From IMG/VR virus record IMGVR_UViG_650377941_000004: a DNA stretch of 20,000 nucleotides. The stretch is one strand, 5' to 3'. Source of the DNA: an uncultured virus (IMG/VR IMGVR_UViG_650377941_000004) (lineage: Duplodnaviria; Heunggongvirae; Uroviricota; Caudoviricetes). The position numbers and the translations under genes were made by a program. Below, in pieces: positions 1,775 through 19,805 of the stretch; within the stretch, counting starts at the first letter, position 1, and every line of letters starts with the position of its first letter. The notes below the pieces were generated by a model that worked only from the letters and a program-made list of their open reading frames with translations, ran no database searches and was not told the origin of the DNA.

Positions 1775-2947
1775 ATGCAGATTAACGTGAAGTTGTCTCC
1801 AGATGTGCTAGACTGGGTTATGGCACATATTCAACAAGAAAATGTTCCGCGGGATGTTGTAAAGTATTTAACAATATGGAAAAGTGGTGAAAAATTGCCC
1901 ACTTTTAATCAGATCGAAAAAGTTAGTAAAGCATCTGGAATCCCATTTGGGTATTTTTTCCTCCAAGAACCTCCCAAAGAAGAATTTCCGTTATTAGAGT
2001 ACAGAACCATAGATAGCACATCGGCAATGAATCCGAGCAGAAATATTATTGATGTTATGCATGATATGGAACAAGTTCAGGATTGGGCTAGAAATCATGC
2101 TATAGAGGAAGAACAGCAGGCTCCAGAATTTATTGGAAGCCAAAAAAACAATGTGGATACTGAAGACTTTGCCGAATATGTCCGAACAGTTTTAGAGTTA
2201 GAAATTAAATGGTATGAAAACAGCAAATCGGCTGTAGAGTCTTTTAAAACACTGAGAGATAAAATTAGTCAAGCAGGCGTTATTGTTATGATGAGTGGTA
2301 TTGTTGGAAATAATACGCATCGACCGCTCGACATAAATGAATTTCGTGCTTTTGCGATGGTAGATGATCTTGTACCATTAATTTTTATCAATTCAAACGA
2401 TTCGGTTAGCGGGAAACTATTTTCTTTGCTACACGAATTTGCTCATATATGTATAGGAAATAATAGTTTATACAATGACAGATATAGCTCTGGAACAAGG
2501 GTTAGTAAGGCGGAAAGTGTATCTAATGCAGTGGCTGCGGAAATTTTAGTTCCACAGGTCATGTTTGAGAAAAAGTGGAAAGAAATCGATAAATTTGATG
2601 ATCCAATTAAAACGATTGATGCGCTTACAAAGTATTTTAGCTGTGGGACGACAGTTATAGCAAGGAAAGCATTAGATAACGGATATATTGATTATTCTGT
2701 ATATAGGAAGCTGTCACAAATTGCGGTTAATCGTTACAATGAAAAACGAAAAAAGGAAAAAGAGCAAGGCGGTGGCGGAGACTATTATAGAACTGCGGCA
2801 AGCCGAATTGATACACGGTTTTTCAAGAGCTTGGTCTCAAGCGTTCACGAAGGAAAAACTTTATACACGGACGCTTTTAGACTTACTAATACCAATAGAT
2901 CTACCTTTGAAAATTTGGTTAACAAAATGGGGGGTGGGTCGAAGTGA
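1775..2947 (+). CDS. HTH + ImmA/IrrE (M78) Zn-metallopeptidase; putative antitoxin
   Basis: XRE-like N-terminus (WKSGEKLPTFNQIEKVSK), HExxH motif LLHEFAH, E..SNAVAAEILVP. Confidence 0.9.
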   Translation: MQINVKLSPDVLDWVMAHIQQENVPRDVVKYLTIWKSGEKLPTFNQIEKVSKASGIPFGYFFLQEPPKEEFPLLEYRTIDSTSAMNPSRNIIDVMHDMEQVQDWARNHAIEEEQQAPEFIGSQKNNVDTEDFAEYVRTVLELEIKWYENSKSAVESFKTLRDKISQAGVIVMMSGIVGNNTHRPLDINEFRAFAMVDDLVPLIFINSNDSVSGKLFSLLHEFAHICIGNNSLYNDRYSSGTRVSKAESVSNAVAAEILVPQVMFEKKWKEIDKFDDPIKTIDALTKYFSCGTTVIARKALDNGYIDYSVYRKLSQIAVNRYNEKRKKEKEQGGGGDYYRTAASRIDTRFFKSLVSSVHEGKTLYTDAFRLTNTNRSTFENLVNKMGGGSK

Positions 2948-3459
2948 ATCAAGAAGTTTTTCTAATAGATACAAATGCTTTGCTGACACCGCATCTTATG
3001 TATTATCCGTTTGACCTCGCACCTAGCTTTTGGGAACAGCTAGAAGAAAAACTTAAAGATGGTTCAGTTGTTCTCTTAGATATGGTGAAAAATGAAATAA
3101 CAGAGGGTCATGATGAACTTTCAAATTGGATGAAGTCATTACAGGGGATAAACATCATTGACCATAGAACTCCCGAAATCATAGAAAAATATAGTAGAGT
3201 TTTAGGTGCAGTTCAAAGCAATACATGCTATAAGCAAAGTGCGCTTGCAGAGTGGTCAAGAGAAAGTGTTGCAGATCCATGGCTAATTGCAACTGCGGCA
3301 GTAAGAAAATTAACAATAGTAACATTTGAAAAAAAGAATGGTGGTCTGTCACCCAAAAATCCGAGTAAAAATGCTAAAATACCAGATGTGGCGATTGAGT
3401 TTGGAGTAAGCGTTTGTGATCTATATTATATGATGAGAAGTTTATCATTTCGTCTTTAA
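2944..3459 (+). CDS. DUF4411-family PIN-like nuclease; putative toxin
   Basis: FLIDTNAL, ADPWLIATA, IVTFE, KIPDV motifs; GTGA overlap with upstream stop. Confidence 0.85.
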   Translation: MNQEVFLIDTNALLTPHLMYYPFDLAPSFWEQLEEKLKDGSVVLLDMVKNEITEGHDELSNWMKSLQGINIIDHRTPEIIEKYSRVLGAVQSNTCYKQSALAEWSRESVADPWLIATAAVRKLTIVTFEKKNGGLSPKNPSKNAKIPDVAIEFGVSVCDLYYMMRSLSFRL

Positions 3460-3465
3460 TAGAAC

Positions 3466-3753
3466 CTAAATTGCATTATGTGATATAACAAAAACAGGGT
3501 GCGCCCGCCCGGACGCACCCTGCCAAAAGCCACAGACAATAACGATATGTACAGCAGGAAGTTCCCCAACGGGAACTTCCTGTTTTTCTTTTCCTGCAAG
3601 ATGAGCCTGTTCTGTCTGCCATGCGGCAAACTCCCTCTGGCCTTCCTCGCTGTTCCAGCAGGCAAGGATGGCCGGGTAGAATGCCCGCGCCAGACGGTCA
3701 ATGACTTCATCGGGATAAGGGGAAGTATTTGTGGACTTTTTCTTTTTGTTCAA
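3466..3753 (-). CDS. Small hypothetical element backbone protein
   Basis: TTG start at 3753 after AAAGGAG RBS; core IDRLARAFYPAI...SEEGQREFAAW resembles small proteins I recall at ends of clostridial IMEs. Confidence 0.6.
   Translation of the reverse strand: MNKKKKSTNTSPYPDEVIDRLARAFYPAILACWNSEEGQREFAAWQTEQAHLAGKEKQEVPVGELPAVHIVIVCGFWQGASGRAHPVFVISHNAI
3555..3592 (+). terminator. Intrinsic terminator of peptidase-DUF4411 operon
   Basis: Perfect 12-bp stem CAGGAAGTTCCC-caac-GGGAACTTCCTG followed by TTTTTCTTTT. Confidence 0.75.
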
Positions 3754-3897
3754 ACGCACACTCCTTTGACTGTCCCACCGTGGCAAAGCCGGGCAAGAAA
3801 ATCAAAGTTCCAATTTCATGTCAGGCGCAAGGGCGCGGATGCTTTCCGCCCTGTACTTGCGGCTGGTGGCTCATTGATGGCTTACAAGTGCCTGCCG

Positions 3898-4833
3898 TTA
3901 TGCCGTTTTAGAGGATTCACTGCTGGATTCTGCAAGAACTTCGTCCAGCGTTTTCAAAAATTCAAGATGAGGTTTCAAGGCAAAGCGAAGAACTTTGACC
4001 TGTTCCGGATGCGTAAGAAGTTTCGGGTTCAAGTCGAACGTAACCTCCCAACTCTTTCGCATGAGAGATTCAGCATTGTGGAGCCGGTAGTACAGTTCGA
4101 GAAACTTTTGGGGAACATCATAGTTTTCATCAATGGTGTTGCTGGCGGCTTTCTCTGCCTGCTTCACCGTTACCTTGTTAGGCTTGACCTTCTTCGGCTT
4201 CGGCACATAATTCTTGATTTCCTCAAAAATTTCAGCCTGTTCTTCGGGCTTGGCCTTGCCGAGATTTTCGAGAAGATAATCGGGAATGTGCAGTTCCTCG
4301 CGGAAGAACCGATCACGGAAACCGGGAGACAATTCATCCGCAACGTCAACACCGTGCGCATAGTATTCTGCACGGCGGACAGAACTTGCACTGCTGTGAT
4401 TTTCCTGTGCGATGCGCTCACAGGTTTTCATAGGCTTCTGGTTGTGTTCAGACTGAACACTGCCAGATTTCTTTACAGTATGCTGATTGCCGCGAAATGT
4501 TTCGGTACGCTTTTCAGAGGAATACTGCTTGCCCATCAGAAACTTCTTTTGCTCCGGGGTTAAATTGCGCCGCCCCAACTGGTTTTTGCAAATCCAAGCG
4601 AGAACTTCTTCCCGGCTTTCAAAGGGGAGCGGCATGGTGGAGAAATAAATCTCAGGATGCTTCTGGAGAATGGCATAACGGTTGTGTCCATCAACAAGGG
4701 TATTGTTCCAGACAATCAAAGGAGAGAGCAGCTTGCCCTCTTTGAGGATGTTTTCTTCAAGCTGCTTAAATTCATCATCGGTCAGAGGAGGAATCTGGGA
4801 CTGGAACTCCGGGTCGATTTTCAGATTGATCAT
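3898..4833 (-). CDS. ParB/Srx-like N-terminal domain protein
   Basis: IDPEF...PPLTDDEFKQLEENIL..G..PLIVW...VDGHNR and NQLGRRNLT motifs; ATG 4833 after AAAGGAG. Confidence 0.8.
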   Translation of the reverse strand: MINLKIDPEFQSQIPPLTDDEFKQLEENILKEGKLLSPLIVWNNTLVDGHNRYAILQKHPEIYFSTMPLPFESREEVLAWICKNQLGRRNLTPEQKKFLMGKQYSSEKRTETFRGNQHTVKKSGSVQSEHNQKPMKTCERIAQENHSSASSVRRAEYYAHGVDVADELSPGFRDRFFREELHIPDYLLENLGKAKPEEQAEIFEEIKNYVPKPKKVKPNKVTVKQAEKAASNTIDENYDVPQKFLELYYRLHNAESLMRKSWEVTFDLNPKLLTHPEQVKVLRFALKPHLEFLKTLDEVLAESSSESSKTA

Positions 4834-4845
4834 ACGCACACTCCT

Positions 4846-6492
4846 TTATCTCTCCTGCTGCGTCTGTTCTTCCTCCCGGAAAAAGGACGCAACATTCTGC
4901 TTTGCGGTTTTCAGTTTGAGCAGTTCTTCCTTAGCTTCCTTGTACTGCTCGTAGAACTTTGCCTTTTCGGATGCCAGCTGCGCATACTCGGCTTCCAGCT
5001 TTTTCGGGCTGGGCAGCTTGGTGAGGTTGTTTGCCTTGAAATAGGCTGCTGCCGCCCGGTACGCTGTCAGCTCTGCACGATGCTGTTCCTCAAAGACTGC
5101 GGGGCGCTTGGCGGTCTTTAACTGCTGGGCAACATTCTTGGTGCTGGTGTAGGCTGCGATATGATAGCGCAGCTCATTGTTGGTCTTCATGCGACCTTCG
5201 AGGTCTTTCACCACCGCCAGCGAGTCGTGATACTTGGCTTCCAGTTTGGCGATGCGCTGGTTCAAGGTGTCCTCGTCGGTCAAGCCCTTTTCCTGCAGAA
5301 GCNNNNNNNNNNNNNNNNNNNNNNNNNNNNNNNNNNNNNNNNNNNNNNNNNNNNNNNNNNNNNNNNNNNNNNNNNNNNNNNNNNNNNNNNNNNNNNNNNN
5401 NNNNNNNNNNNNNNNNNNNNNNNNNNNNNNNNNNNNNNNNNNNNNNNNNNNNNNNNNNNNNNNNNNNNNNNNNNNNNNNNNNNNNNNNNNNNNNNNNNNN
5501 NNNNNNNNNNNNNNNNNNNNNNNNNNNNNNNNNNNNNNNNNNNNNNNNNNNNNNNNNNNNNNNNNNNNNNNNNNNNNNNNNNNNNNNCGATGCGCTGGTT
5601 CAAGGTGTCCTCGTCGGTCAAGCCCTTTTCCTGCAGAAGCTTCACGGTCTGTGCCATAATTTTGAGATTGTGTTTCGTGAGCCAACGCTTATAGCCGATG
5701 CCCTTGTCCTCGATCATCCTCGACTGGATGTCGATCAGTTTCCCGATGGCATCCTGCTTGAACTGCACCTTAGGTTTGCGTTCGGCGTTTGCCTGCAACG
5801 TGGCAAGCACTGCCGCCTTATCGAACTTGTCACTGAGATGTTTCGCTCGTATGAACTTTGTTCTTCCAGCAGGTAGATAACTTAGGCACCCACGACTTTC
5901 CTTGCCGGCAATTCCGTACTGCTGCAAGAGCCTGTCGGAAAAATCTTCAAAGCTGGTGGCACGGTACAATACAGACGAAATCTGTCTCCGCAAAGTGTCC
6001 TTCACGGTTTCAAACTTCTTCTGCTGGGGCGGCTGTCCAGCTGCGGTGAGGGCTGCGTTTTCGCGGTCAAGTTTCAACTGGCCGCGCCTGTGCGCCCAAT
6101 ACTCAGCTTCGCTCACACGCTCTTTCGAGCCGTTGAGCAGGTCGATCTGGTACAGTCCGGCACCCTCGCACAGCTCCATGACCTCGACACGCAAATGCCG
6201 CATGGTCTGGGCTGTGCTGGAGTGCTTCATGCCCTCTAGCCAGTCACGGGGCTTCTGCATATAGGGCTTGCGCTCCACCTCTCGTGTTCGGATGCTGCCG
6301 ATCACGATGTGGACGTGGATGTTTCCCGGTACTGTTGTGCCCATCCGGGTGAGTGCAGACGATGGCAGGATGAGTGGGGAAGTTGTCCTTGCAGAACTGC
6401 AAGCCAAGGGCTTGCGCCCGCTCCATGGTCAGGCCGTTCTCTACTGCGTCCTTCGGGTCGAAGCTGATGATATAATGGTGGGTCTTCACGTC
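4846..6492 (-). pseudogene. MOBP-type relaxase/mobilisation nuclease, N-terminally deleted and frameshifted
   Basis: Motif II HHYIISFDP (from 6489) and motif III HPDGHN..GNIHVHIV are split by a 1-nt frameshift near 6321-6327; no motif I or mobC upstream; C-terminus ends EEQTQQER. Confidence 0.85.
5303..5587. other. Scaffold gap (N run) flanked by identical 53-bp sequences
   Basis: 5250-5302 equals 5588-5640; collapsing them gives an in-frame relaxase. Confidence 0.9.
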
Positions 6493-6585
6493 CGCAGACT
6501 GTTCGTAAAACAGTATTCAACAAATGACACGGCAACTGGATGTCAGGATTGGTTACTGTTCACTCCGCTAGGCCTAAAAAGCATT

Positions 6586-6630
6586 AAGTCCCATGACCAC
6601 ACCGCCGAGGTGTTGGCCATGGGACTTTTT
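6586..6630. terminator. Long hairpin, possibly bidirectional terminator
   Basis: AAGTCCCATGACCACACC-gccga-GGTGTTGGCCATGGGACTT then TTT; downstream of minus-strand membrane gene. Confidence 0.6.
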
Positions 6631-6752
6631 GTGTCTGGGAGCGGCACACCTCTATCGAGGTGTAACACACTAGACTTTGTTTCAAAGTCGTGTGCCAAAG
6701 GAGATTACGCTCCTTTGAAATTTCCGTCATCATAGAGGAAAGAAACAATCTA

Positions 6753-7208
6753 TTAACTTTCCCATGCAGCAACAATGCTTCTTTCTGGGTTTTGAGGGTC
6801 AATAGTCACCTTTATAGGTGTTCCCTTGCTCACGAGAGGGTTGAACCAAAACCAATGGGACTGTCCATAATAAGTGTCTTTTCCAATCTTGTATTGGTAC
6901 CGAATCACCCAAGGATAAATTACATCTTCATCAGCAAGGTGATAGGTACTCATGTGGAATTTTATGTGAACCCTTTTTACTGCATTAACTTTTCCGGAAA
7001 CAATCTTTCCGTTTTTCAGCAGGTCTGCTTTGCGGATGTCTGTAATCCATGCTACCCCGATAATTGCCATAGCAATAAGCCACGCAGCTATGAGTGCCCC
7101 GATTCCAACTTGCTTATAGGCGATAGAAATCAGAAAAGCAACAAAAATCCCAACAGCACCAAGAATATGGAGCAAATCTTTAGAAAAGAACTTATGGATT
7201 TTTTTCAT
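6753..7208 (-). CDS. Membrane protein, DUF3592-like
   Basis: Two N-terminal TM helices then LLKNG...G.V...YP..IRYQY...G..IKVTIDPQNPERS; own RBS and promoter. Confidence 0.7.
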   Translation of the reverse strand: MKKIHKFFSKDLLHILGAVGIFVAFLISIAYKQVGIGALIAAWLIAMAIIGVAWITDIRKADLLKNGKIVSGKVNAVKRVHIKFHMSTYHLADEDVIYPWVIRYQYKIGKDTYYGQSHWFWFNPLVSKGTPIKVTIDPQNPERSIVAAWES

Positions 7209-7250
7209 GGAAAGACACTTCCTTTCTCGGTAGACAACATTATTTGTTCT

Positions 7251-7279
7251 ATTGTATCATATGCTCTGTGTTTTTTCAA
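7251..7279 (-). promoter_or_regulatory. Sigma-A promoter for membrane protein gene
   Basis: Minus strand TTGAAA-17 nt-TACAAT with TGn extension. Confidence 0.65.
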
Positions 7280-7439
7280 ACCAAGTCAAGTGATTGGTGA
7301 AACGACATGAAATAATTGCATCTCACGACAGGTCACCGAAGATAATTGGATTTTTGCAAAAAAGAGGAGTAGTGTATCGTCGAAGGATGTGTTATACTCA
7401 GTCCATGGAACAATTATGAACTTTATTGTTACTCGGCAG

Positions 7440-7570
7440 GGTTTGGGGCAGGCACGCCCCAACAAGAAGCACTTCGGAAACGCACGAGCGTTGCAGAAGT
7501 GTAGTCCCGGAGGAACACAGAATTTTCAAGAATTGAAAATTTGTGTCCACGGGACGGTTCTTGCCCTCTA
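7440..7570. other. Candidate oriT/mobilisation control region
   Basis: Non-coding; hairpins TTGGGGC/GCCCCAA (7443-62) and AATTTTCAA/TTGAAAATT (7521-41), then TCTTGCCC; upstream of relaxase remnant. Confidence 0.35.
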
Positions 7571-8081
7571 CCGCTGCGCTCAAAACGCATTTTCAACAAA
7601 TGTTTCCGAATTTTTAAGGCGCAAAAATAAGTAGAGGTGGTGCTGCTCATGTAATGGGGTCACCGTTTGCTCCGAACGAAGTTCCTGCCCCTGTTTGTGC
7701 AGCGGCGTTGACGGAAAGTCGGTATCACGTTCGGTCGGCTCATGAAATTTTCAAGGTACAACTCCCGTAAAGAAAAATACCACCCTGCAAGACAGGCGAA
7801 AAATTTTGTCGGGTGAATCGGCGGCAAAATGAATCGGGTGTGTTGCGGGGCGGTAAATCTTTCAGGGATAATCCACGGTGAGGCAGTGTTCAAAATGAAC
7901 ACGACCACATTTTGTGGGTGGCTTCAAACCAATCCACAAAGACGGTGGGATTTACAAGAAAAATACCACTGTATGTGAAATTCGTCAAGAGGGTTTTGGA
8001 AAATTTATTACGGTAAAGTGGCGATAGTAAGACTTATCCGACAAAAAACAAAAGCATATGCAGAGAAATTTTGCGCACAAA

Positions 8082-8110
8082 TTGGAAAATCGAGCTATCT
8101 GTGTTATACT
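8082..8110 (+). promoter_or_regulatory. Promoter of hsd operon
   Basis: TTGGAA-17 nt-TATACT with TGn; GGAG RBS before ATG 8150. Confidence 0.6.
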
Positions 8111-8149
8111 CAAGTCAGAATTTGTTGAGCAAAACGGAGGTACTGAGCT

Positions 8150-9694
8150 ATGGCAGAGAAAAACACCGCCGACATTGGGTTTGAAAAGCAGATTTGGGAT
8201 GCCGCCTGTGTGCTTCGGGGTAATATGGATGCTTCGGAGTATAAGGGCGTTGTCCTTGGTCTTATTTTCTTGAAATATATTTCGGATCGTTTTGAAGATA
8301 AGTACAATCAGCTGGTTGCAGACGGTGATGGTTTTGAGGAAGACCGTGACGAGTACACATCGGAAGGAATCTTCTTTGTGCCTGCTGGTGCGCGTTGGAG
8401 CGATGTTTCTGCAAAGGCACATGATCCCGAAATCGGTCAGGTAATCGATGATGCAATGCGTGCTATCGAAAAAGAAAACGCGCGCCTAAAAGATATTCTG
8501 CCGAAAAATTTTGCGCGTCCGGAATTAGATAAACGTCGGTTGGGCGAAGTTGTTGACCTGTTTACGAACATCAAAATGATTGAACACGGCAGCGAAAAGG
8601 ACATTCTGGGGCGCACTTATGAATACTGCCTGTCGATGTTTGCAGAGCAGGAAGGCAAGCGCGGCGGCGAGTTCTTTACACCGTCCTGTGTTGTGCGGAC
8701 ACTGGTGGAAGTGCTGCAACCGTTTAAGGGACGAGTGTACGACCCTTGCTGCGGCAGCGGCGGTATGTTTGTTCAATCTGCAAAATTTGTAGAGAACCAT
8801 AGCGGAAATATCAACGATATTTCAATTTATGGTCAGGATTCCAACCCGACTACATGGAAGCTGGCACAGATGAACCTTGCTATCCGTGGCATTGAACCCG
8901 ACCTTGGCAAGTATGCAGCAGACACATTCCTTGATGACCAGCACCCGACCATGCGGGCAGACTATATTATGGCGAATCCCCCTTTTAACCTGTCGAATTG
9001 GGGCGCAGAGCAGCTCAAAGATGATGTACGCTGGCAGTATGGTATGCCGCCTGCAAGCAACGCGAACTTTGCATGGCTTCAGCACATGATTTATCATCTT
9101 GCGCCGGGTGGCCGCATGGGTATGGTGCTTGCAAACGGTTCGCTCTCTTCTCAGTCTGGCGGCGAAGGTGACATCCGCAAAAATATTGTGAATGCTGACC
9201 TTGTGGACTGCATCATTGCCATGCCGACACAGCTTTTCTATACCACACAGATTCCGGTTTCGCTCTGGTTTATCTCCAAACGCAAGAAACGAGCCGGAAA
9301 AACGTTGTTTATTGACGCCCGTAAGATGGGCGTTATGGTGAGCCGCAAACTGCGTGAACTTACAGATGGCACAAAAGAAGAATACAAAAACGAAGATGGT
9401 ACATCAAAAAATGACATCAAAAAGATTGCCGATACCTACAATGCCTATGTTAATGGTACACTGGAAGATGTAAAAGGTTTCTGCGCAGTTGTTGATACAG
9501 AGAAAATTGCAGAGCAAGATTATATTTTAACGCCGGGCCGTTATGTTGGGGTTGAGGAACAGGAAGATGATGGTGAGCCGTTTGAAGAAAAAATGGCTCG
9601 ACTGACTTCTGAACTTTCGGATTTGTTTAAGCAGTCGCACAAGTTGGAAGCAGAAATCAAGGAGAAGCTGGGGGCGATTGGATATGAAGTTTGA
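8150..9694 (+). CDS. hsdM: Type I R-M methyltransferase subunit (m6A)
   Basis: GEFFTP, DPCCGSGG (motif I), NPPF (motif IV), LTPGRYVG. Confidence 0.97.
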   Translation: MAEKNTADIGFEKQIWDAACVLRGNMDASEYKGVVLGLIFLKYISDRFEDKYNQLVADGDGFEEDRDEYTSEGIFFVPAGARWSDVSAKAHDPEIGQVIDDAMRAIEKENARLKDILPKNFARPELDKRRLGEVVDLFTNIKMIEHGSEKDILGRTYEYCLSMFAEQEGKRGGEFFTPSCVVRTLVEVLQPFKGRVYDPCCGSGGMFVQSAKFVENHSGNINDISIYGQDSNPTTWKLAQMNLAIRGIEPDLGKYAADTFLDDQHPTMRADYIMANPPFNLSNWGAEQLKDDVRWQYGMPPASNANFAWLQHMIYHLAPGGRMGMVLANGSLSSQSGGEGDIRKNIVNADLVDCIIAMPTQLFYTTQIPVSLWFISKRKKRAGKTLFIDARKMGVMVSRKLRELTDGTKEEYKNEDGTSKNDIKKIADTYNAYVNGTLEDVKGFCAVVDTEKIAEQDYILTPGRYVGVEEQEDDGEPFEEKMARLTSELSDLFKQSHKLEAEIKEKLGAIGYEV

Positions 9695-10892
9695 CATTTG
9701 GAAAGAGTGCCCGAAAGTACCGTTGCCCAGTGTTCTTTTAACGGTTGTTGACAACCGAGGAAAAACTGTACCAACTGCCCCTTCGGGACATAAACTAATT
9801 GCAACAAATTGTGTCAGAAATGAAAATCTATACCCTGTATATGAAAAAATTAGGTATCTCTCAGAGGAAACATACAGAACGTGGTTTAGAGCGCACCCTG
9901 AACCTGGAGATATTATTTTTGTGTGTAAAGGAACACCTGGAAGGGTGTGTTTGGTGCCCGATCCAATAGATTTTTGTATTGCGCAAGATATGGTTGCATT
10001 AAGAGCCGATCCTAAAATTGTATATAACAAATATCTTTTAGCTGTTTTGCGTAGTTTTCAAATTCAAGAGCAAATTCTAAGTACAAGTGTAGGTGATGTG
10101 ATTCCACATTTCAAAAAAAGTTTTTTTGATCAAATAATGATTCCGATACCGAATATGGATATTCAAAAGTCAATCGGTGATTTTTATTACACAATATCCG
10201 AGAAAACGGAGTTAAACAAAAAGATAAACGATAATTTAGAGCAGCAAGCCGCCACCTATTTTCAAGAATTATTTATCAACAATGCAAATCCCATGTGGCA
10301 AATCAGCACAATAAGTGACCTTGGAACTGTTGTGGGCGGTAGTACGCCTTCAAAAACCAAGCCTGAATACTATACCAATAATGGTATTGCGTGGATAACG
10401 CCAAAAGATTTATCTATCAACAAGTCCAAATTCATATCTCATGGCGAAAATGATATCACAGAACTTGGTTTGAAGAACAGCAGTGCAACAGTCATGCCCA
10501 AGGGTACAGTATTGTTTTCATCACGTGCTCCCATCGGATATATTGCAATTGCATCTAATGAAGTTACAACCAATCAAGGCTTTAAGTCTGTTATACCTTA
10601 CTCGGAAATTGGAACAGCGTTTGTATACTTTTTCTTGAAACACAGTCTTCCGGTTATTGAGAGTGCAGCATCAGGCTCGACATTCAAAGAAATTTCAGGA
10701 AGTGCCATGAAGAATATCCCCGCCATCATTCCTGATCGGAACACACTTGACCAATTTAATAGTTTCTGTGCGCCAATCTTTGCGCAACAAAAAATCTTGG
10801 AAGAGCAAAATCATTCACTTGCTATGCTAAGAGATAGTCTGTTACCTAAACTAATGTCTGGTGCAATTGATATCGCGAGTATTCAGATCTAA
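9684..10892 (+). CDS. hsdS: Type I R-M specificity subunit (two TRDs)
   Basis: Overlaps hsdM stop; central helix KKINDNLEQQA, GGSTPS, SSRAPIG, C-terminal LRDSLLPKLMSG. Confidence 0.95.
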   Translation: MKFDIWKECPKVPLPSVLLTVVDNRGKTVPTAPSGHKLIATNCVRNENLYPVYEKIRYLSEETYRTWFRAHPEPGDIIFVCKGTPGRVCLVPDPIDFCIAQDMVALRADPKIVYNKYLLAVLRSFQIQEQILSTSVGDVIPHFKKSFFDQIMIPIPNMDIQKSIGDFYYTISEKTELNKKINDNLEQQAATYFQELFINNANPMWQISTISDLGTVVGGSTPSKTKPEYYTNNGIAWITPKDLSINKSKFISHGENDITELGLKNSSATVMPKGTVLFSSRAPIGYIAIASNEVTTNQGFKSVIPYSEIGTAFVYFFLKHSLPVIESAASGSTFKEISGSAMKNIPAIIPDRNTLDQFNSFCAPIFAQQKILEEQNHSLAMLRDSLLPKLMSGAIDIASIQI

Positions 10893-10912
10893 GCCGCTAA
10901 ATTATCGTTTAT
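10224..10912. repeat. 16-bp perfect inverted repeats flanking TRD2 of hsdS
   Basis: ATAAACGATAATTTAG at 10224-10239; reverse complement CTAAATTATCGTTTAT at 10897-10912. Confidence 0.9.
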
Positions 10913-10932
10913 AAAAGATATGAAGGGATAAT

Positions 10933-12225
10933 ATGGAAGATTTTGATAATGCTAAGACAAGAAATCCGAGGGAATGCGTTGTTACAAACCTTAATAGCTA
11001 CCTGACCTACATTTCTGATATAAAGGAAACCATAAAGAAAGAGGAAGGTGCGGAAGTAAGCGCAAAGCATTATTTCTTCCGTGGACAGGCCAGCAACGAA
11101 TGGAACGTCATGCCGGGAGTGTTCCGTGGTGGGATGCTGCCACATGAAGCAGAATTGATAAATGCGGCTTACACACGAAATCCCGATGACTTCCGGCAAC
11201 TGACAACAGATTTTGAAAAACTCGCAAAATTGCAGCACTACGGATTGCCGACAAGACTGTTGGACGTGACGGAGAATCCGCTAGTGGCACTGTATTTTGC
11301 TTGCCAGAACAATCAAGAGAGAAAGACAAATGACGGGAAGACCACATTGTTGCCGCCGACCGATGGAAAAATCTATTATAAGCGCGATTACGGAAAAAGC
11401 TATAGCGACATAGAGATCAAAGTGCTGGCATATTTAGCGAGTCATAAAATTTCGGGCGATTATACATTAGAAAAGCTGCTCTCGGATTTGAACAAGTATG
11501 GAATTTATACAGATAAAGAGGTAAAAGAGTGCGAGGCAAGCGAGTACAAAAGCTTGCTTTCGACTATTCAAAGAAATTATTTTGTGATTTCCAACTTGAA
11601 TAATGAAAGATTGGTACGGCAAAGCGGCTCTTTTTTGATCTGCGGAAAATATAATGTTCAGCTGAAAGAAAAACTCGGACAGAGCATTGTTAAACGGGCA
11701 TATAGTGATGTCCAAGATGAATTTGAACTTCAAAGTTTTAGAATACCAGCGGGAAGAAAAGATGCGATTTTAGAGGAACTGAGTTTTTACAACATCAACG
11801 AAGGGACGCTGTTCCCGGAACTTGAGCACCAGATGGCATATATTAAAAGCAATTATGCGAACACACAAAAGCCTATGGTTGATCGGTTTGTGAAAACAGA
11901 AGTTCCGATAACAAGTATTAGAGAAGTGCGTGATTCAGATGTTTCAGACGATAAAGTGGACGAGATTATTCGAGAAGCATTGCATAATGCTGTGCATCCA
12001 GAAATTTTTGATGATTGTTACGTTGCAATTCAAAAGAATCTGATGCCGGATTGGTATCGCAAGGAAATTGGACTCAGTAAAGTTCGATTGGCACTGACGG
12101 ACACATTGGATAATGGTACGCCGATAGGACGTGCGATGGCAAAAAGAGCAGCACAGTCTATCGTTGAAAAGATTGTGAATGCCATTGCGCAAGAATCGAA
12201 TACAGCAACTTCGGATAATAGTTGA
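10933..12225 (+). CDS. FRG-domain protein
   Basis: YFFRGQ, QHYGLPTRLLD.TENPLVALYFAC, NERL..QSG.F and LFPEL motifs. Confidence 0.92.
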   Translation: MEDFDNAKTRNPRECVVTNLNSYLTYISDIKETIKKEEGAEVSAKHYFFRGQASNEWNVMPGVFRGGMLPHEAELINAAYTRNPDDFRQLTTDFEKLAKLQHYGLPTRLLDVTENPLVALYFACQNNQERKTNDGKTTLLPPTDGKIYYKRDYGKSYSDIEIKVLAYLASHKISGDYTLEKLLSDLNKYGIYTDKEVKECEASEYKSLLSTIQRNYFVISNLNNERLVRQSGSFLICGKYNVQLKEKLGQSIVKRAYSDVQDEFELQSFRIPAGRKDAILEELSFYNINEGTLFPELEHQMAYIKSNYANTQKPMVDRFVKTEVPITSIREVRDSDVSDDKVDEIIREALHNAVHPEIFDDCYVAIQKNLMPDWYRKEIGLSKVRLALTDTLDNGTPIGRAMAKRAAQSIVEKIVNAIAQESNTATSDNS

Positions 12226-12236
12226 GGAGAAAAATC

Positions 12237-15200
12237 ATGCTTTCATTTACCGAAGATACCTTTGAACAAGCGGTCATAGAGCTATTTGAAAATATGGGTT
12301 ACACCCACATTTATGCTCCTGATATGAACCGAACAGATTACAGCCGCCCTCTGCCGGACGATGTTTTGCGGGATTGTCTGGTGCGGCTGAATCGCAGCCT
12401 TCCGGCTGTGGCAATTGATGAAGTCATCCTGAAACTGAATGATTTTGATGCAGGAAGCCTATTGCAGAAGAATATTATTTTTATGGACTATCTGCAAAAC
12501 GGTATCACGGTCAAATACGCAGTCAAGGGTGAAGAACGGTCTTCGGTAGTAAAGCTGATTGATTATGCAGATGCAGACAAAAATGATTTCTATGTGGTAA
12601 ACCAGTATACCTTCGTGGAAAATGGAAACAACCGCCGCCCGGATATCACTCTGTTTATCAACGGAATGCCACTGGTCTTGATGGAACTGAAAAGTCCTTC
12701 CAAGGATGAAGTGGGCGCAGAAAACGCCTACAATCAGATTCGGAACTATATGCAGGACATTCCCTCCATGTTCTATTATAACGCCATCTGTGTGATCAGC
12801 GACCTGTCCACCAACAAAGCAGGTACGATTACTTCCGGGCTTGACCGTTTTATGGAATGGAAAACAAAAGACGGTGATTATGAAAACACTGCGTATGCGC
12901 AGTTTGATACCTTCTATGAGGGGATGTTCCAGAAAGCACGGTTGCTGGATATTCTGAAAAATTTCATCCTGTTTTCCGGTGATGGGCAGAAGCCGATTAA
13001 AATTTTGGCTGGGTACCACCAGTATTTCGCTGTACGAAAAGCCATCGAAAAGGCCAAAATTGCCACCAAAACAGACGGCAAGGGTGGTGTGTTCTGGCAT
13101 ACGCAGGGCAGCGGAAAATCTCTGTCGATGGTATTCTATGCCCATTTGCTGCAAGAAGCTTTGGATAGCCCCACCATCGTTGTGATGACGGACCGCATTG
13201 ACCTTGACGATCAGCTCTACACGCAGTTCGCCAGGTGCGCGCCGTTTTTGCGCCAGACACCTGTACAGGCAACCAGCAAGGAAAATCTAAGCAAGCTGCT
13301 GGATGGTCGAAAAGCAAACGGCATTATCTTCACCACGATGTTCAAGTTTGAGCGTGGCGAGAAGCCACTGTCCGAACGTAGAAATATTGTGGTAATGGCG
13401 GATGAAGCCCACCGTGGACAGTATGGTTTTGATGAAAAAATTGTCATCAAAGAAAATGAACGGGGTGAAAAAGAAGCACATACGGTCATTGGCAATGCCC
13501 GTATCATTCATGATGCCCTGCCGAATGCAACCTACATAGGCTTTACGGGAACGCCGATTTCGGCAAAAGATAGAAATACGCGTGAAGTTTTTGGTGATTA
13601 TATCGATGTTTATGATATGACACAGGCTGTGGAGGATGGCGCAACGCGTCCGGTTTACTACGAGAGTCGTGTTATCAAACTCCACCTCGACCAGAATACA
13701 CTGGCCTTGATTGATGCGACCTACGACGCACTGGAACAGCAATCGGACGCTGCAACGATTGAAAAAAGCAAAAAGATGCTGGGGCAGATGGAGAGTGTGT
13801 TGGGGGCAGATTCTACCATTCAATCCCTGTGCGAAGATATTGTCGACCACTACGAAAAGTACCGCGCCAATCTCCTGACAGGTAAGGCAATGATCGTAGC
13901 GTATTCGCGCCCGATTGCGATGAAGATTTATCGAAAACTTCTGGAGCTGCGCCCGACATGGAACGAAAAAATCGGCGTAGTTATGACTGGTGGCAACAAT
14001 GACCCGGAGGATTGGAAAGAAATCATCGGCACAAAATCTCACAAAGAAGAACTTGCCCGGAAATTCAAAGACAACGATGACCCGATGAAGATTGCCATTG
14101 TTGTGGATATGTGGCTGACAGGTTTTGATGTGCCTTCACTGGCTACGATGTATGTTTACAAGCCAATGCACGGATACAATCTGATGCAGGCCATCGCGCG
14201 TGTCAACCGCGTGTTTAAGGACAAAGAGGGCGGCTTGATTGTAGATTACGTTGGCATTGCATCTGCCCTCAAAGCCGCTATGAAAGAGTACACCAAGCGT
14301 GACCAGTCCCGATATGGTGATATGGACATTGCCAAAGTTGCATATCCGAAGTTTCAGGAAAAACTTCAGGTGTGTAAAGATTTGTTGCACGGCTTTGATT
14401 TTAGCGGATTTATTGGAGGTTCTCCGTTAATGATGGCAAAGCTGGTCACTGGCGGCGTAAACTTTGTTCTGGACGCAAAAGCACCCAAGCGCAAAGATCT
14501 GTTCCTGCGAGAAGCTCTGTTGCTGAAACAGTCGCATTCGCTGTGTTCCAGCATGACCACGGAGCAGGAGCGACATGAAGCGGCCTATATGGAAGCAGTC
14601 CGTTCTACGGTGGTGAAGATCACCTATGGTGGGAGTGGCGGCAAGACACTTTCTTTGAAAGAAATCAATGCTCAAATCAATGAGTTGCTAAAGGCGAGTA
14701 TCCAGAGCCAAGGCGTTATCAGCTTGTTTGACAGCAAGCAGGCGGATGAAAATATCAGCCTGTTTGACCCGGCGGTGTTGGATGAAATTTCAAAAATGAA
14801 GGAAAAGAACATTGCCGTAGAAATTTTGAAAAAACTTATGGCAGAGCAAGTTTCACTGTATAAACGGACAAATGTTGTGCAGTCTCAGAAGTTTTCAGAA
14901 AAGATTACACAGTTGATGAACTCTTACTACAATGGCTTGATTACAAACGAGGAGGTCATCAAGGAACTTCTGAAAACGGCACAGGAGATTACAGAACAGT
15001 ATAACAACGGTAAAAAGCTGGGCTTGACGCAGGAAGAACTGGCTTTTTACGATGCTTTGACAAAGCCGGAAAACATCAAGGATTTCTACCAAAATAATGA
15101 ATTGATTGACTTGACCAGAGAACTTACGGAAATGCTGCGCAAAAATCGGACGATAGACTGGCAGAAAAAAGAAACTGCCCGTGCGAGTATGCGTAAGATG

Positions 15201-15308
15201 GTGAAGCACTTGCTGAAAAAATATAAGTATCCACCGGAAGATTATGATACGGCAATCAGCACGGTCATTAGCCAGTGTGAGATGTGGACTGACAACATGG
15301 TAGTATGA
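12237..15308 (+). CDS. hsdR: Type I restriction endonuclease subunit R
   Basis: PD...ELK nuclease motif, HTQGSGKS Walker A, DEAH, FTGTP, QAIARVNR; ATG 12237 after GAGGAG. Confidence 0.97.
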   Translation: MLSFTEDTFEQAVIELFENMGYTHIYAPDMNRTDYSRPLPDDVLRDCLVRLNRSLPAVAIDEVILKLNDFDAGSLLQKNIIFMDYLQNGITVKYAVKGEERSSVVKLIDYADADKNDFYVVNQYTFVENGNNRRPDITLFINGMPLVLMELKSPSKDEVGAENAYNQIRNYMQDIPSMFYYNAICVISDLSTNKAGTITSGLDRFMEWKTKDGDYENTAYAQFDTFYEGMFQKARLLDILKNFILFSGDGQKPIKILAGYHQYFAVRKAIEKAKIATKTDGKGGVFWHTQGSGKSLSMVFYAHLLQEALDSPTIVVMTDRIDLDDQLYTQFARCAPFLRQTPVQATSKENLSKLLDGRKANGIIFTTMFKFERGEKPLSERRNIVVMADEAHRGQYGFDEKIVIKENERGEKEAHTVIGNARIIHDALPNATYIGFTGTPISAKDRNTREVFGDYIDVYDMTQAVEDGATRPVYYESRVIKLHLDQNTLALIDATYDALEQQSDAATIEKSKKMLGQMESVLGADSTIQSLCEDIVDHYEKYRANLLTGKAMIVAYSRPIAMKIYRKLLELRPTWNEKIGVVMTGGNNDPEDWKEIIGTKSHKEELARKFKDNDDPMKIAIVVDMWLTGFDVPSLATMYVYKPMHGYNLMQAIARVNRVFKDKEGGLIVDYVGIASALKAAMKEYTKRDQSRYGDMDIAKVAYPKFQEKLQVCKDLLHGFDFSGFIGGSPLMMAKLVTGGVNFVLDAKAPKRKDLFLREALLLKQSHSLCSSMTTEQERHEAAYMEAVRSTVVKITYGGSGGKTLSLKEINAQINELLKASIQSQGVISLFDSKQADENISLFDPAVLDEISKMKEKNIAVEILKKLMAEQVSLYKRTNVVQSQKFSEKITQLMNSYYNGLITNEEVIKELLKTAQEITEQYNNGKKLGLTQEELAFYDALTKPENIKDFYQNNELIDLTRELTEMLRKNRTIDWQKKETARASMRKMVKHLLKKYKYPPEDYDTAISTVISQCEMWTDNMVV

Positions 15309-15335
15309 ATTGTATGAAATGTCGTTGATTTGTGC

Positions 15336-15364
15336 TTGACAATCGGATCCCTTTTCTGTAAAAT
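15336..15364 (+). promoter_or_regulatory. Near-consensus sigma-A promoter
   Basis: TTGACA-17 nt-TAAAAT. Confidence 0.8.
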
Positions 15365-15407
15365 GATTTTAGAAAATACTATTATTGAAAATAAGAAAGG
15401 CTATTTT

Positions 15408-15937
15408 ATGGGAAAGATGATCTTAGATGACCTCCGCAAGCGTCTGGAACGTCTGGACGAAGACGCAGACCTGATGATCGACAATAACGACCACTATCAG
15501 ATGGTGATCGTAGGCGGCAGTGCGTTCATTCTGCTGGGCAAACTGACCCGTGCCACCCATGACATTGATGCCTTGAGCGTTCCGAAAGAACTGTACGGCT
15601 TGCTCGGTAAGTACGATATCAACACGGATGTGGAAGCCTACATCGACAATTTTCCCTATAACTATCCCGACCGTTTGAAACCGCTGCCCTTCGGTGGCAC
15701 AAAGGTTCAGTTCTACACACCCAGTCTGGAAGATCTGGTGATTGCAAAGCTTTGCTCTTTCCGTGATACCGACAAGGCGGACGTGGAGAGCGAAGCTGTG
15801 AGGAACTCGCTAGACTGGGATTTGCTGGAGCATCTTGCAACAGATGAGGACGAACTGAAAGCCAGCATCTGAATGAGTGGCGGTATCGGGACTTCTACAT
15901 CCGGTATCAGGAGTATGTGGAGAGGTGGAGACCGTGA
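15408..15937 (+). pseudogene. DUF6036/AbiEii-like nucleotidyltransferase with a 3' frameshift (stops at 15872 as assembled)
   Basis: IVGGSA...TRATHDID, EDLVIAKL..RDTD..D motifs; shifted frame continues LNEWRYRDFYIRYQEYVERWRP to TGA 15935-37, overlapping next start. Confidence 0.75.
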
Positions 15938-16473
15938 GGAAGCTGACATTTGAGGGATTTTTGAAGCAGTATGTGACGGAACTTTCCGGTGTTCAGACTG
16001 CCAGCATTCACAAGCTGGCGAACTGCTTACATGAAAATCCACGGCTGAAAGAGCCGCTGTACCTCTATGCACTGGTGTTTGATAAAGTAAATCTGCTGCT
16101 CCGCTATGCAAAAGACCCTGTGTGTCTTGCAGAGTATGAACGACTTTCAAATCGCTATTCGAGGGAGCAGGTACTTGCGCTTTTGCAGAACCAGTCGGCA
16201 GAGCTGTCGGAGGGCTATCTGAAAGTCTGGCGCAGTTATTGCTCCGTCCGGGATGCTGCTCTTGCCGACAATGATACAAAAGAACTGATTCACCGCAGAG
16301 TGGTAGAGATTCAGCAAAAGAAACATCTGACGAATTATCGTATTTATGCAGACCTGAAACTGAATCCCGGCAACGTGAATGCGTGGCTCAAGCACAACGA
16401 TTCCAGCAAAATGAGCCTTGACTGCGCCCGGCAAATTTACAAGTACGCAAAGAGTTATTCGGCTGTCCGTTAA
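15934..16473 (+). CDS. Protein with C-terminal XRE-like HTH; putative partner/antitoxin of the NTase
   Basis: GTG 15934 after GGAGAGG; TNYRIYADLKLNPGNVNAWLK HTH-like segment. Confidence 0.7.
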   Translation: MRKLTFEGFLKQYVTELSGVQTASIHKLANCLHENPRLKEPLYLYALVFDKVNLLLRYAKDPVCLAEYERLSNRYSREQVLALLQNQSAELSEGYLKVWRSYCSVRDAALADNDTKELIHRRVVEIQQKKHLTNYRIYADLKLNPGNVNAWLKHNDSSKMSLDCARQIYKYAKSYSAVR

Positions 16474-18072
16474 AAAGGAAGTGCACTCATGGGAACTACA
16501 AAAGCTCTAATCGTTGGCGTAAGCGAATACTTTATTGATGGAGCGGATAACCTCTTCTTTTATAAAAACGATATTATTGCAATGCAAGATGCCTTTATTT
16601 ACGGCCTAGAAGTTGCGGAAAAAGATATGATAGTTTGCGGATTAACAAACACAGTTACAGCAAACGACTTAATCACAGCATTAAAAGGGATTGAAAGGAT
16701 TGTACAAGATGACGATACTTTACTATTCTATTTTTCAGGACATGGGACAACATTGAGTGAAAAACATTACTTGGTATTAAGTGATAGATTAATATGTACA
16801 CAAGATATAATTTCTTTTTTAGATGCAATTTCTGCACGAAATAAAGTGATCTTTCTCGATTGCTGTTTTGCGGGGAACTTTCAAGTTGATGGGTCTGCTG
16901 TTTTTGATATGGAATCGACAGTACGCGATTTTGCAGGAAAAGGGTATGCAGTTTTTGCTTCTAGTAATGCAAGCCAGGTTTCTCGACTTTACCCAAATAA
17001 ATCGATCAGCTTGTTTACTGATTTTTTATACGATGCAATAACAAGTAAGTGCACAATCCGAAACGGAAAGAAAAATTTGAATGATATACACAAATTGTTG
17101 TTCTTACTTTTAGAAACATGGAACAAAAACAATCCAAATTGCGTGCAATTCCCGATTTATAGAGCTAATATAGGCGGCACTGTTTTTTTTGATGTTAAGG
17201 ATTACAAGCCGTATCTTCCGAAAAAGTTCTTTTATGATGATGAGGATTATTGTATTTGCTCAGTCGAGCCGCTTCATAATGGGATTGCAAAACGTTATGC
17301 AGTTAAAGTGATTCTTAAAAAGCCAGTATCATTCGAGCAAGTGTCCTTGATAAACCTTCAAATTGTTGAAAGGATAAAGTTATTAAACATTTTCAATAGC
17401 AAAGCACAAGAATCGAAGTGGAAAAATAAGCCAGCCAACTTGATTTTTGCTTATTTTGGACTTGACTATTCAGACATAGTATCGGGAAACTATATTTGTG
17501 ACACTACTTGGGCGGATGATACGCAAGATAAAAAATGGTGGTATCGTATAAGAAAAGAATCAGAGGCTGTAATAAATGGAATTTATTTCAATATTCATTC
17601 TTATTATCAATCATTAAAAGAATACACTGCTGAACATACTGCGAATGCAGAAGAAATCATACAAGAAACAAAATCAATTCTGTCAGAAATGATTACATTG
17701 GCCGAATATGTTATCGCACAATACAATGAAGTTCTCAATAACGAGCGAACCGAAGAGGAGTTTGTGAATCTTGTAGCAGATGCCCTATCTAGAATTAATG
17801 AACTGTATTGTAAAGAAGGCGATTTGGACTTTCCCCCGGAAGAGCTCCGAGAGTGGAGCCAACTCTGTTCAAATATTATATCCGGCATACACGATTTTTC
17901 GCTTTTTTATGGAAGTCAACACTTTTTACAGAGAACGGAAATGAACAGAAGGCAATGTATGAATTTATCAATCAAACAATATTATCAGGATCTTGAACGT
18001 CTAAAAGATTATGAAACTCAATAATTATGGACGTGCAATGAAATATTAAGTTTACCCGTTAAAAAGGAAGTG
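16467..18072. repeat. 17-bp direct repeats flanking the caspase gene
   Basis: CCGTTAAAAAGGAAGTG at 16467-16483 and 18056-18072. Confidence 0.85.
16489..18024 (+). CDS. Caspase-family (peptidase C14) protein with uncharacterised C-terminal domain
   Basis: KALIVGVSEY, LFYFSGHG (His), IFLDCC (Cys), SLFT..L. Confidence 0.88.
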   Translation: MGTTKALIVGVSEYFIDGADNLFFYKNDIIAMQDAFIYGLEVAEKDMIVCGLTNTVTANDLITALKGIERIVQDDDTLLFYFSGHGTTLSEKHYLVLSDRLICTQDIISFLDAISARNKVIFLDCCFAGNFQVDGSAVFDMESTVRDFAGKGYAVFASSNASQVSRLYPNKSISLFTDFLYDAITSKCTIRNGKKNLNDIHKLLFLLLETWNKNNPNCVQFPIYRANIGGTVFFDVKDYKPYLPKKFFYDDEDYCICSVEPLHNGIAKRYAVKVILKKPVSFEQVSLINLQIVERIKLLNIFNSKAQESKWKNKPANLIFAYFGLDYSDIVSGNYICDTTWADDTQDKKWWYRIRKESEAVINGIYFNIHSYYQSLKEYTAEHTANAEEIIQETKSILSEMITLAEYVIAQYNEVLNNERTEEEFVNLVADALSRINELYCKEGDLDFPPEELREWSQLCSNIISGIHDFSLFYGSQHFLQRTEMNRRQCMNLSIKQYYQDLERLKDYETQ

Positions 18073-18077
18073 AATCT

Positions 18078-19559: not shown

Positions 19560-19600
19560 ATCCAACGATTTCACGTTAGAAATCGTTGGATTTTTTGTTT
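19558..19600 (+). terminator. Intrinsic terminator after attR
   Basis: AAATCCAACGATTTC-acgtta-GAAATCGTTGGATTT then TTTGTTT. Confidence 0.85.
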
Positions 19601-19619
19601 GTGGGCTGACCTCATTTGG

Positions 19620-19643
19620 TTTTGACCACAATTTTGACCACAA
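19620..19643. repeat. Tandem 12-bp repeat (possible integrase arm-type sites)
   Basis: TTTTGACCACAA x2, about 65 bp from att core. Confidence 0.6.
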
Positions 19644-19673
19644 TGCCAACGATTTTATCTGGTCTACTGCCTG

Positions 19674-19805
19674 CCGGATGCCCGCTGTCAGCGGCGCAGA
19701 GAAGCCGTTCTGCTCGGCAAAGAGCAGTGCTTCCTGCTCCACGGTCATGCCCGTGTACACCTTGCAGAGGATCGGCAGATCTTTGCCGCCGTTACGGTGG
19801 ATGCG
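19674..19805 (-). pseudogene. Internal fragment of a DUF6551/ParB-like protein
   Basis: RIHRNGGKDLPILCKVYTGMTVEQEALLFAEQNGFSAPLTAGIR; recognised from memory of the family, no start codon. Confidence 0.45.

Follow-up and report, generated by a model that had tools for sequence, protein, structure and literature searches.

The DNA considered here is a 20,000-nucleotide stretch filed in IMG/VR as an uncultured virus of the Caudoviricetes (record IMGVR_UViG_650377941_000004), and we refer to this whole stretch as the window. Between positions 8150 and 15308 it holds a predicted Faecalibacterium Type I restriction-modification operon consisting of hsdM, hsdS, an FRG-domain gene and hsdR, in which the part of hsdS that encodes the second target recognition domain (TRD2) is bracketed by two short inverted repeats, referred to below as arms. 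Our favoured reading, which we hold to be probable rather than assured, is that this hsdS is what remains of a specificity shufflon with four arms after its recombinase was excised, and that the gene is now locked at full length. Excision is the most likely route of this loss, and the allele most likely no longer flips. The original prediction, made from the letters of the window alone, had described a minimal two-state switch, driven in trans or now frozen. These two options were, in our judgement, the right pair; the minimal switch itself probably has to give way to a derivative that arose by deletion from a shufflon with four arms and two cassettes, the complete form of which is found at the same chromosomal site in the Faecalibacterium genome G001.

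Results

Inverted arms bracket the second recognition domain of hsdS

Pfam matches were obtained for hsdM, hsdS and hsdR in the window. The hsdS gene (9678–10892, plus strand) is full length, with 404 amino acids (aa) counted from a TTG at 9678 and a probable start at the ATG at 9684. Two stretches of its product match Methylase_S (PF01420), and both halves align to the S subunit of Protein Data Bank (PDB) entry 1yf2 (E 2.1e-51), with TRD2 running from about residue 199. It is the only hsdS of the locus: no second Methylase_S open reading frame (ORF) was found between hsdM and hsdR in the ORF list of the window and by Pfam scans.

The left arm (ATAAACGATAATTTAG, 10224–10239, plus strand) spans 16 nt and encodes INDNL within the helix connecting the two TRDs; the right arm (10897–10912, minus strand), also of 16 nt, starts 4 nt past the hsdS stop and is non-coding in the present orientation. 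As the original prediction had stated, the repeats are perfect, the arms being 100% complementary over 16 nt at a distance of 657 nt. Between them lies the invertible TRD2 cassette (10240–10896, plus strand), which starts with the remainder of the helix and continues through TRD2, the C-terminal helix and the stop codon to a GCCG spacer. With up to two mismatches allowed, the 20-kb window has exactly two copies of the arm 16-mer, one per strand, against a chance expectation of 0.01 derived from 200 dinucleotide-preserving shuffles, none of which gave two or more matches.

Inversion of the cassette would truncate HsdS. TRD1 and the first part of the connecting helix (9684–10223, plus strand) are the expressed portion that would be retained, and the right arm, read on the minus strand, supplies ATA AAC GAT AAT TTA GCG GCT TAG, that is, INDNLAA*; with the ATG at 9684 as the start, the product of the inverted gene would have 187 aa. 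Both forms use one two-way stop, CTAA (10889–10892), of which TAA ends full-length hsdS and the complementary TAG ends the truncated form after two alanines.

What the window does not contain is a tyrosine recombinase. No match to PF00589 was found among the 34 ORFs scanned, and a tblastn search of the whole window with the shufflon recombinase of relatives (see below) returned a best E of 0.18; the earlier statement that there is no invertase in the locus is correct for tyrosine recombinases. The sole recombinase in the window is of an unrelated large serine type (18078–19559), 7.2 kb downstream of the hsdS locus, which the original prediction did not mention.

A complete four-arm shufflon lies at the same site in relatives

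Around hsdS, G001 is syntenic with the window: window positions 3484–9688 and 10898–16483 align at 87–93%, and the segments 7457–9688 and 10898–16483 match locus L016 of this genome at 93%. Homology restarts at the right arm, where window 10898–16483 corresponds to L016 9953–15542. The interval from hsdM to the FRG gene measures 3.46 kb in G001 vs 1.2 kb in the window. It contains a 182-aa half-hsdS ending VNDNLAA*, a TRD2 on the opposite strand and in frame with the arm, a 327-aa tyrosine recombinase (PF00589, E 1.9e-33), a 178-aa half-hsdS ending INDNLAA* and a second TRD2, again on the opposite strand, and it has four arm copies in the order + - + -. The locus of relatives accordingly reads hsdM, half-hsdS, arm, TRD2, arm, tyrosine recombinase, half-hsdS, arm, TRD2, arm, FRG, hsdR. 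Its recombinase falls into NCBIfam NF040815 (XerA-like), with 244.9 bits against a cut-off of 220.

Seven further shufflon loci (in G003, G014, G020 and G091, two in G004 and a second one in G001) have the recombinase between two cassettes; six of them show the + - + - arms, with the 15-nt core that the left arm of the window also has, and the second G001 locus has three arms. Cassette orientations vary among the genome shufflons. The relatives therefore do carry the tyrosine recombinase and spare TRDs that the original prediction had named as usual for hsdS shufflons. The arm motif is present in 11 of the 91 Faecalibacterium genomes scanned, and the two-arm layout of the window in 0 of these 91. 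On this comparison, the arms of the window are the recombination sites of a Faecalibacterium hsdS shufflon, and its cassette is an hsdS segment bracketed by inverted repeats used in that way.

Two genomes, G001 and G004, possess two shufflons each. Their paired recombinases are 78–80% identical, and the arm is identical between both G004 loci and differs by a single base (C to T) between both G001 loci. Possible precursor states for the pairing found in the window also exist in relatives: a cassette resembling that of the window lies forward at position 1 in G003 and L076, and one of its kind lies forward at position 2 in G020. TRD1 of the window (99–100% nucleotide identity) occupies position 1 of recombinase-bearing metagenome shufflons, for example L073, L079, L080, L095, L103, L121 and L139. 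As a variation on the layout, L054 (G004) and L155 (G151) have approximately 1.1–1.6 kb of additional DNA between hsdM and hsdS, which in L155 is a 366-aa ORF with a PIN_12 domain.

The arms are used for inversion and cassette exchange

The same cassette was found inverted at these arms in X8, L080, L095 and L073, which bears out the claim that it is invertible. One 10.7-kb contig of the isolate run X8 has, in this order, hsdM, a TRD1 and a TRD2 that differ from those of the window, about 1.5 kb more, the inverted window cassette, the FRG gene and hsdR; its copy of window 10224–10912 lies on the opposite strand and shows 2 differences over 689 nt. In L080 and L095, the arm, the AA* stop and the inverted window TRD2 come after the TRD1 of the window (100% nucleotide identity), with the recombinase and a second cassette behind them. 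This is the very junction predicted for a half-size form of about 187 aa ending INDNLAA*, and the 187-aa ORF with the TRD1 of the window is intact in 8 metagenome loci. In L095 and L073 the window cassette is inverted at 99.6% identity. All inverted copies found of this cassette sit in loci that retain a recombinase.

L073 and L095 are 99.9–100% identical throughout, yet two cassettes have exchanged places between them; given this near-identity, the exchange must have happened very recently. In L064, L079, L092, L098, L128 and L132, it is the recombinase segment itself that lies inverted. From the cassette swap and the inverted recombinase segments we conclude that the shufflon is, as far as sequence can tell, active in nature.

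Some loci depart from the common pattern. L104 contains two tandem units of 'arm, cassette, arm, recombinase' (recombinase matches at 3218–4198 and 5537–6517, both 97%), which could stem from a duplication or from re-entry of an excised unit. L090 has the window TRD2 (99% nucleotide identity) at both cassette positions, both inverted, and with identical TRD2s at both positions it could make only one full-length specificity per TRD1. In L073, L080, L095 and L069, a single base, the first of the 14-nt core, is changed in the recombinase-adjacent arm (CAAACGATAATTTA); cassettes moved between L073 and L095 despite this change.

Other potential signs of inversion were not used. In the draft genome G010, contigs (C58, C73, C76, C19, C53) end at most about 80 nt from arms, which we rejected as a sign of mixed orientation because the arm and its shared flank form repeats of 30–40 nt able to break short-read assembly. 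The metagenome run X4 has a cassette depth of 6.4 vs about 55 in the flanks and several alternative junction ends, which mixed strains could explain. Palindromic contigs (L087, L111, L129), with hsdM on both strands around one cassette, look like assembly artefacts and were assigned to the class 'unknown'.

Loci with and without a recombinase

For a census of the locus we considered 86 loci, namely the window, 8 genome loci and 77 metagenome loci. The latter are a non-random sample, picked by a 24-mer (left arm plus 9 nt of outer flank) that returned 91 stretches, equal to 79 loci, from which L071 and L077 were dropped as same-contig duplicates. The recombinase is present in 48/86 and absent in 7/86, the window included, with hsdR or FRG directly after the second arm; 19/86 are broken by a contig end and 12/86 lack hsdM on the piece. 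In all 48 recombinase-bearing loci, a tyrosine enzyme lies between the cassettes. Of these 48 complete shufflons, 21 have a full-length hsdS next to hsdM and 27 a truncated one.

The tail of the truncated frame is conserved. Where an arm is terminating, defined as a stop within four codons of NDNL, the stop is at the third codon after NDNL in 110/110 cases (AA* 104, VS* 3, VA* 2, SA* 1). The third-codon stop extends to the G001 paralogue, whose HsdM is just 41% identical, and AA* is also found in the four other genera examined. The stops of TRD2 and of the truncated frame share one tetranucleotide, YTAA one way and TTAR the other.

Among the seven loci without recombinase, the window, L084, L108, L133 and L136 are full length, and L097 and L124 are truncated. 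The TRD1 of the window pairs with three different TRD2s in such loci (window, L084, L108); one hsdM-TRD1 backbone has thus become fixed with three partners, in keeping with a putative repeated loss of the recombinase from shufflons in different states. The locus of L124 and L136 is of a paralogous type and is composed of hsdM, hsdS, a 119-aa ORF, a GmrSD-like gene and hsdR, without a recombinase by Pfam.

A family-wide scan covered 401 genomes, of which 82 have at least one arm match. Five of these, from other genera, were examined further, each with exactly one + and one - arm 600–740 nt apart on a single contig. Queried with the G001 recombinase, four of the five gave no homologue at E <= 1e-20, and the sole match in the fifth is 33% identical and lies on another contig. 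G151, G234 and G324 have a full-length hsdS, and G426 has the forward arrangement, on a contig that stops 60 nt past the second arm. In G332 (L154), a truncated hsdS stands beside an N-terminally shortened hsdM (277 aa, N6_Mtase positions 94–305), and this locus looks like a decaying relic; the search of the G332 genome brought up no recombinase of the shufflon type.

Orientation of the window allele and supply of recombinase

The allele of the window was seen in the forward orientation only, in the window itself and in the runs X1 and X3. X1, an isolate from which this DNA may stem, gives one 11.7-kb contig that is colinear over 8000–13000 at a depth of 253, and contigs of X3 cross both arms colinearly; uncovered stretches in X3 and X8 carry no meaning. 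These runs consist of assembled contigs, from which rare variants are lost, and the inverted copies of the cassette come from recombinase-bearing relatives. But where would an enzyme for the arms come from? A homologue of the shufflon recombinase (E <= 1e-50) is present in 8 of the 41 Faecalibacterium genomes with a completeness of 90% or more. Two homologues occur in G001 and G004 only, corresponding to 2/7 Faecalibacterium genomes with the locus type. With no cognate recombinase in cis, the hsdS of the window is most likely locked, and it most likely specifies a single asymmetric bipartite motif.

The predicted half-size product

The natural 187-aa ORF was modelled as a monomer with AlphaFold2 from a 22-sequence alignment; the model has a mean predicted local distance difference test (pLDDT) score of 89.3 and consists of a compact TRD and a 29-residue terminal helix (residues 158–186). 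From the 1yf2 alignment we infer that approximately 10 connector residues before TRD2 are lost in the truncated form. 1yf2 is the best PDB match of the window HsdS, and the match to the EcoR124II S subunit (7bst) is weak (E 1e-13).

The operon and its neighbourhood

Upstream of hsdS, hsdM (8150–9694, plus strand, 514 aa) matches N6_Mtase (PF02384, E 1.4e-109) and HsdM_N (PF12161), and its product is 95.5% identical to the G001 orthologue at the amino acid level. The FRG-domain gene (10933–12225, plus strand; PF08867, E 4.8e-20) lies between hsdS and hsdR and occupies the identical slot in G001, with 97.7% amino acid identity. It is followed by hsdR (12222–15308, plus strand, 1028 aa; PF04313, PF18766, PF11867). 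The slot between hsdS and hsdR varies among relatives: besides the FRG gene of the window and G001, it contains an FRG allele of 56% identity in G003, G014, G020 and G091, a GmrSD-like gene plus the 119-aa ORF in L136 and L124, an AAA_15/AAA_21 ATPase in L133, and a 265-aa ORF without assigned function in L155.

Directly after hsdR, a DUF6036 nucleotidyltransferase (180 aa) and an unannotated 198-aa ORF fill positions 15330–16473. They are followed by a caspase-domain ORF (16489–18024; Peptidase_C14, E 8.8e-13) without a counterpart in G001. The alignment with G001 skips from window 16483 to 18061, positions that are contiguous in L016 (15531–15542), and the segment 16483–18061 is an insertion or deletion between close relatives. 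The surroundings of the caspase-domain ORF look like a possible defence island. The large serine recombinase that follows (18078–19559, plus strand) has Resolvase, Recombinase and Zn_ribbon_recom domains (PF00239, PF07508, PF13408) and resembles the CcrB/XisF types, scoring below the NCBIfam cut-offs; its start is conserved in G001, window 18061–18531 matching L016 15531–16001. A 450-aa ORF on the minus strand (18408–19760), with a weak DUF6551 match, overlaps it, and it is likely that just one of the two is real. Further upstream, an IrrE-like Peptidase_M78 protein (390 aa) and a DUF4411 protein (171 aa) span 1775–3459, the stop of the first gene overlapping the start of the second, and look like a candidate two-gene module. 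A 137-aa Peptidase_M15_3 ORF (E 2.5e-20) lies at the left edge (288–701).

Discussion

Tyrosine recombinases invert the DNA between inverted sites and excise it between direct sites, a rule that is established for the enzyme class. In their passages on TvrR-clade enzymes, Huang et al. 2020 (PMC7672463) apply the same rule. The complete form of the Faecalibacterium shufflon consists of an XerA-like tyrosine recombinase between two units, each composed of a half-hsdS (TRD1), an arm, a TRD2 cassette and an arm, and we propose that the recombinase would exchange strands within the 15–16-nt arms. Acting on an inverted arm pair, it would flip a cassette and leave the upstream hsdS either full length (TRD1-TRD2) or ending two codons past the arm (NDNLAA*). 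Acting on a direct pair, it would excise the intervening DNA; in the + - + - order, both the minus pair and the plus pair form direct repeats. Whichever of these pairs recombined, the excised DNA would include the recombinase gene and the second half-hsdS together with one cassette and one arm. The locus left behind would read hsdM, TRD1, a plus arm inside hsdS, TRD2, a minus arm just after the stop and the FRG gene, which is the layout of the window. Since the layout equals this excision product and the homology to G001 restarts at the right arm, the window appears to be a self-inflicted deletion product.

Several observations weigh against a locked remnant, and they concern both its origin and its present state. 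The run data are assembled contigs, which drop rare variants, and a minority inverted population in X1 would escape notice. G001 and G004 each have two shufflons whose arms are the same or one base apart, and recombinase-less cassettes occur in both orientations among relatives. L124 and L136 are colinear at 94–95% and carry a 696-nt cassette (arms included) that is mutually inverted at 98% identity; this pair is accounted for more simply by a single loss with later flipping in trans than by two independent losses. For the origin, the choice of a deletion of the recombinase unit over an insertion into a simple locus is made by parsimony only (48 vs 7 loci). Could the window then be a live two-state switch, in which the tyrosine recombinase of a paralogous shufflon flips 10240–10896 in trans and alternates between the 404-aa and the 187-aa INDNLAA* forms? 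We regard this as possible but doubtful. The near-identical arms and paired recombinases of G001 and G004 speak for it, as do the opposite cassettes of L124 and L136 and the two states of the recombinase-less loci in general (5 full length, 2 truncated), and Huang et al. (PMC7672463), in discussing invertase-negative invertons, consider that these may use distant invertases, citing HvsR of Mycoplasma pulmonis. However, a second recombinase is found in just 2/7 genomes with the locus type and any at all in 8/41, this allele is forward only in the window, X1 and X3, and 4/5 single-pair family genomes have no homologue at E <= 1e-20. In addition, independent excisions from differing states would also give both orientations, with identical junctions that make the two routes indistinguishable.

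The other explanations carry less weight. The window may represent an empty docking site in a cycle of excision and reintegration, in which a circle (arm, recombinase, half-hsdS, arm, TRD2) may re-enter any arm. Its arms are intact and perfect, the tandem recombinase units of L104 fit an extra integration, and Kwun et al. 2018 (PMC6265443), where they describe the pneumococcal tvr locus, report that the recombinase excises tvrR circles with one or two TRDs that then reintegrate; a lost circle, however, is non-replicating and refilling would need horizontal transfer. We hold this account to be quite unlikely. That the large serine recombinase at 18078–19559 serves as the invertase for these arms is very unlikely. 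It is the only recombinase within the window, and among the loci presented by Huang et al. (PMC7672463) a few hsdS loci are tied to serine recombinases, but CcrB/XisF-like enzymes are typical mobile-element integrases or excisionases, the start of the gene is conserved in G001, which still keeps a dedicated tyrosine recombinase, and a tyrosine enzyme is used in 48/48 recombinase-bearing loci. We give hardly any weight to the idea that the repeat arose by chance or as a side effect of the NDNL coding motif and has no role in recombination: although the left-arm motif is invariant in 22/22 aligned half-HsdS sequences, the right arm is non-coding in the present orientation, two matches were obtained in 0/200 shuffles, and the idea is contradicted by relatives, whose orientation differences start and stop exactly at the arms.

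Beyond the fate of the window allele, the half-size HsdS poses a question of its own. In one extended version of the switch, a one-bit element works in trans and the half-HsdS homodimerises or pairs with a second half-HsdS, methylates a palindromic motif and is maintained by selection. The conserved tail (104/110 AA*, 110/110 third-codon stop) and the truncated state in 27/48 shufflons point to putative selection on the short form. There is also precedent: the half-size subunits EcoR124I(delta50) and EcoDXXI(deltaC) and the natural NgoAV act as homodimers recognising palindromes made up of TRD1 half-sites, as summarised by Loenen et al. 2014 (PMC3874165), and in NgoAV the truncated HsdS occurs naturally, according to the same account. 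Like these proteins, in which the helix serves dimerisation, the short form encoded here has in its model an N-terminal TRD followed by a helix, a point in favour of function. It differs in that the truncation falls inside the helix, which in the model ends at residue 186 of 187. The precedents are all Type IC, with none reported for other families in the account of Loenen et al. (PMC3874165). Where they treat such truncations, Huang et al. (PMC7672463) take them as OFF, an assignment untested there, and in the tvr work of Kwun et al. (PMC6265443) one HsdS with a short C-terminal TRD appears inactive. The conserved AA* tail could equally be explained by constraints on the recombination site. 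We consider the extended version as a whole unlikely. If it were true, Faecalibacterium shufflons would encode more specificities than the count of TRD pairs suggests, and would at times shed their recombinase, fixing one specificity.

Genetic manipulation of Faecalibacterium, a major commensal of the human gut, is difficult, and restriction barriers and methylomes vary from strain to strain. Our analysis suggests that part of this diversity stems from a recombinase-driven hsdS shufflon in some species (recombinase in 8/41 genomes), which often rests in a state encoding just a half-size specificity subunit and appears to lose its own recombinase repeatedly, fixing one specificity; the window would be one such locked allele. 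For strain engineering, a locked allele would offer a stable methylation motif to mimic. For the study of phase variation, it raises the question of whether the half-size state is OFF or a palindromic specificity.

Finally, we would like to compare the Faecalibacterium locus with phase-variable Type I systems described elsewhere. Like SpnD39III (ivr/cod) and the other clade-1 shufflons, it combines short inverted repeats within hsdS with a tyrosine recombinase encoded at the locus and with several alternative specificities. The shortest of the pneumococcal repeats is about 15 bp and recombinase-dependent. In the clade-1 loci as presented by Huang et al. (PMC7672463), every inversion leaves hsdS full length, whereas here one orientation ends the gene past the arm. 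It also resembles pneumococcal tvr (SpnIV), in which the recombinase gene lies between TRD cassettes and is excised along with them via short repeats (Kwun et al. 2018, PMC6265443). Natural isolates without repeats or recombinase are fixed in one arrangement, although low-level shuffling continues without tvrR, as stated in the parts of that paper on tvr variants. Two differences emerge from the same description: tvr changes mainly by excision and reintegration at direct repeats, whereas the Faecalibacterium relatives differ by inversions at inverted 15-nt arms, and the recombinase of tvr is regulated by toxin-antitoxin homologues, of which none were seen in the Faecalibacterium loci.

In the literature searched, we did not find a printed description of the Faecalibacterium shufflon; the word Faecalibacterium is absent from the main texts of PMC7672463, PMC11741434 and PMC9881135, and their supplements may list it. 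The nearest match is the clade-2 (TvrR-clade) invertons of Huang et al. (PMC7672463), which, in the sections that define them, are Type I loci with a tyrosine recombinase amid several hsdS pieces of mixed orientation and with repeats placed so that inversion truncates HsdS. The Faecalibacterium shufflons behave likewise, and the window retains this feature, read-through at its arm yielding INDNLAA*. This likeness is one of behaviour, the Faecalibacterium recombinase being placed by NCBIfam as XerA-like only. By the inverton definition given there, which calls for at least two hsdS genes, the window differs in having one hsdS and no recombinase, and it is best called a locked derivative of an hsdS inverton.

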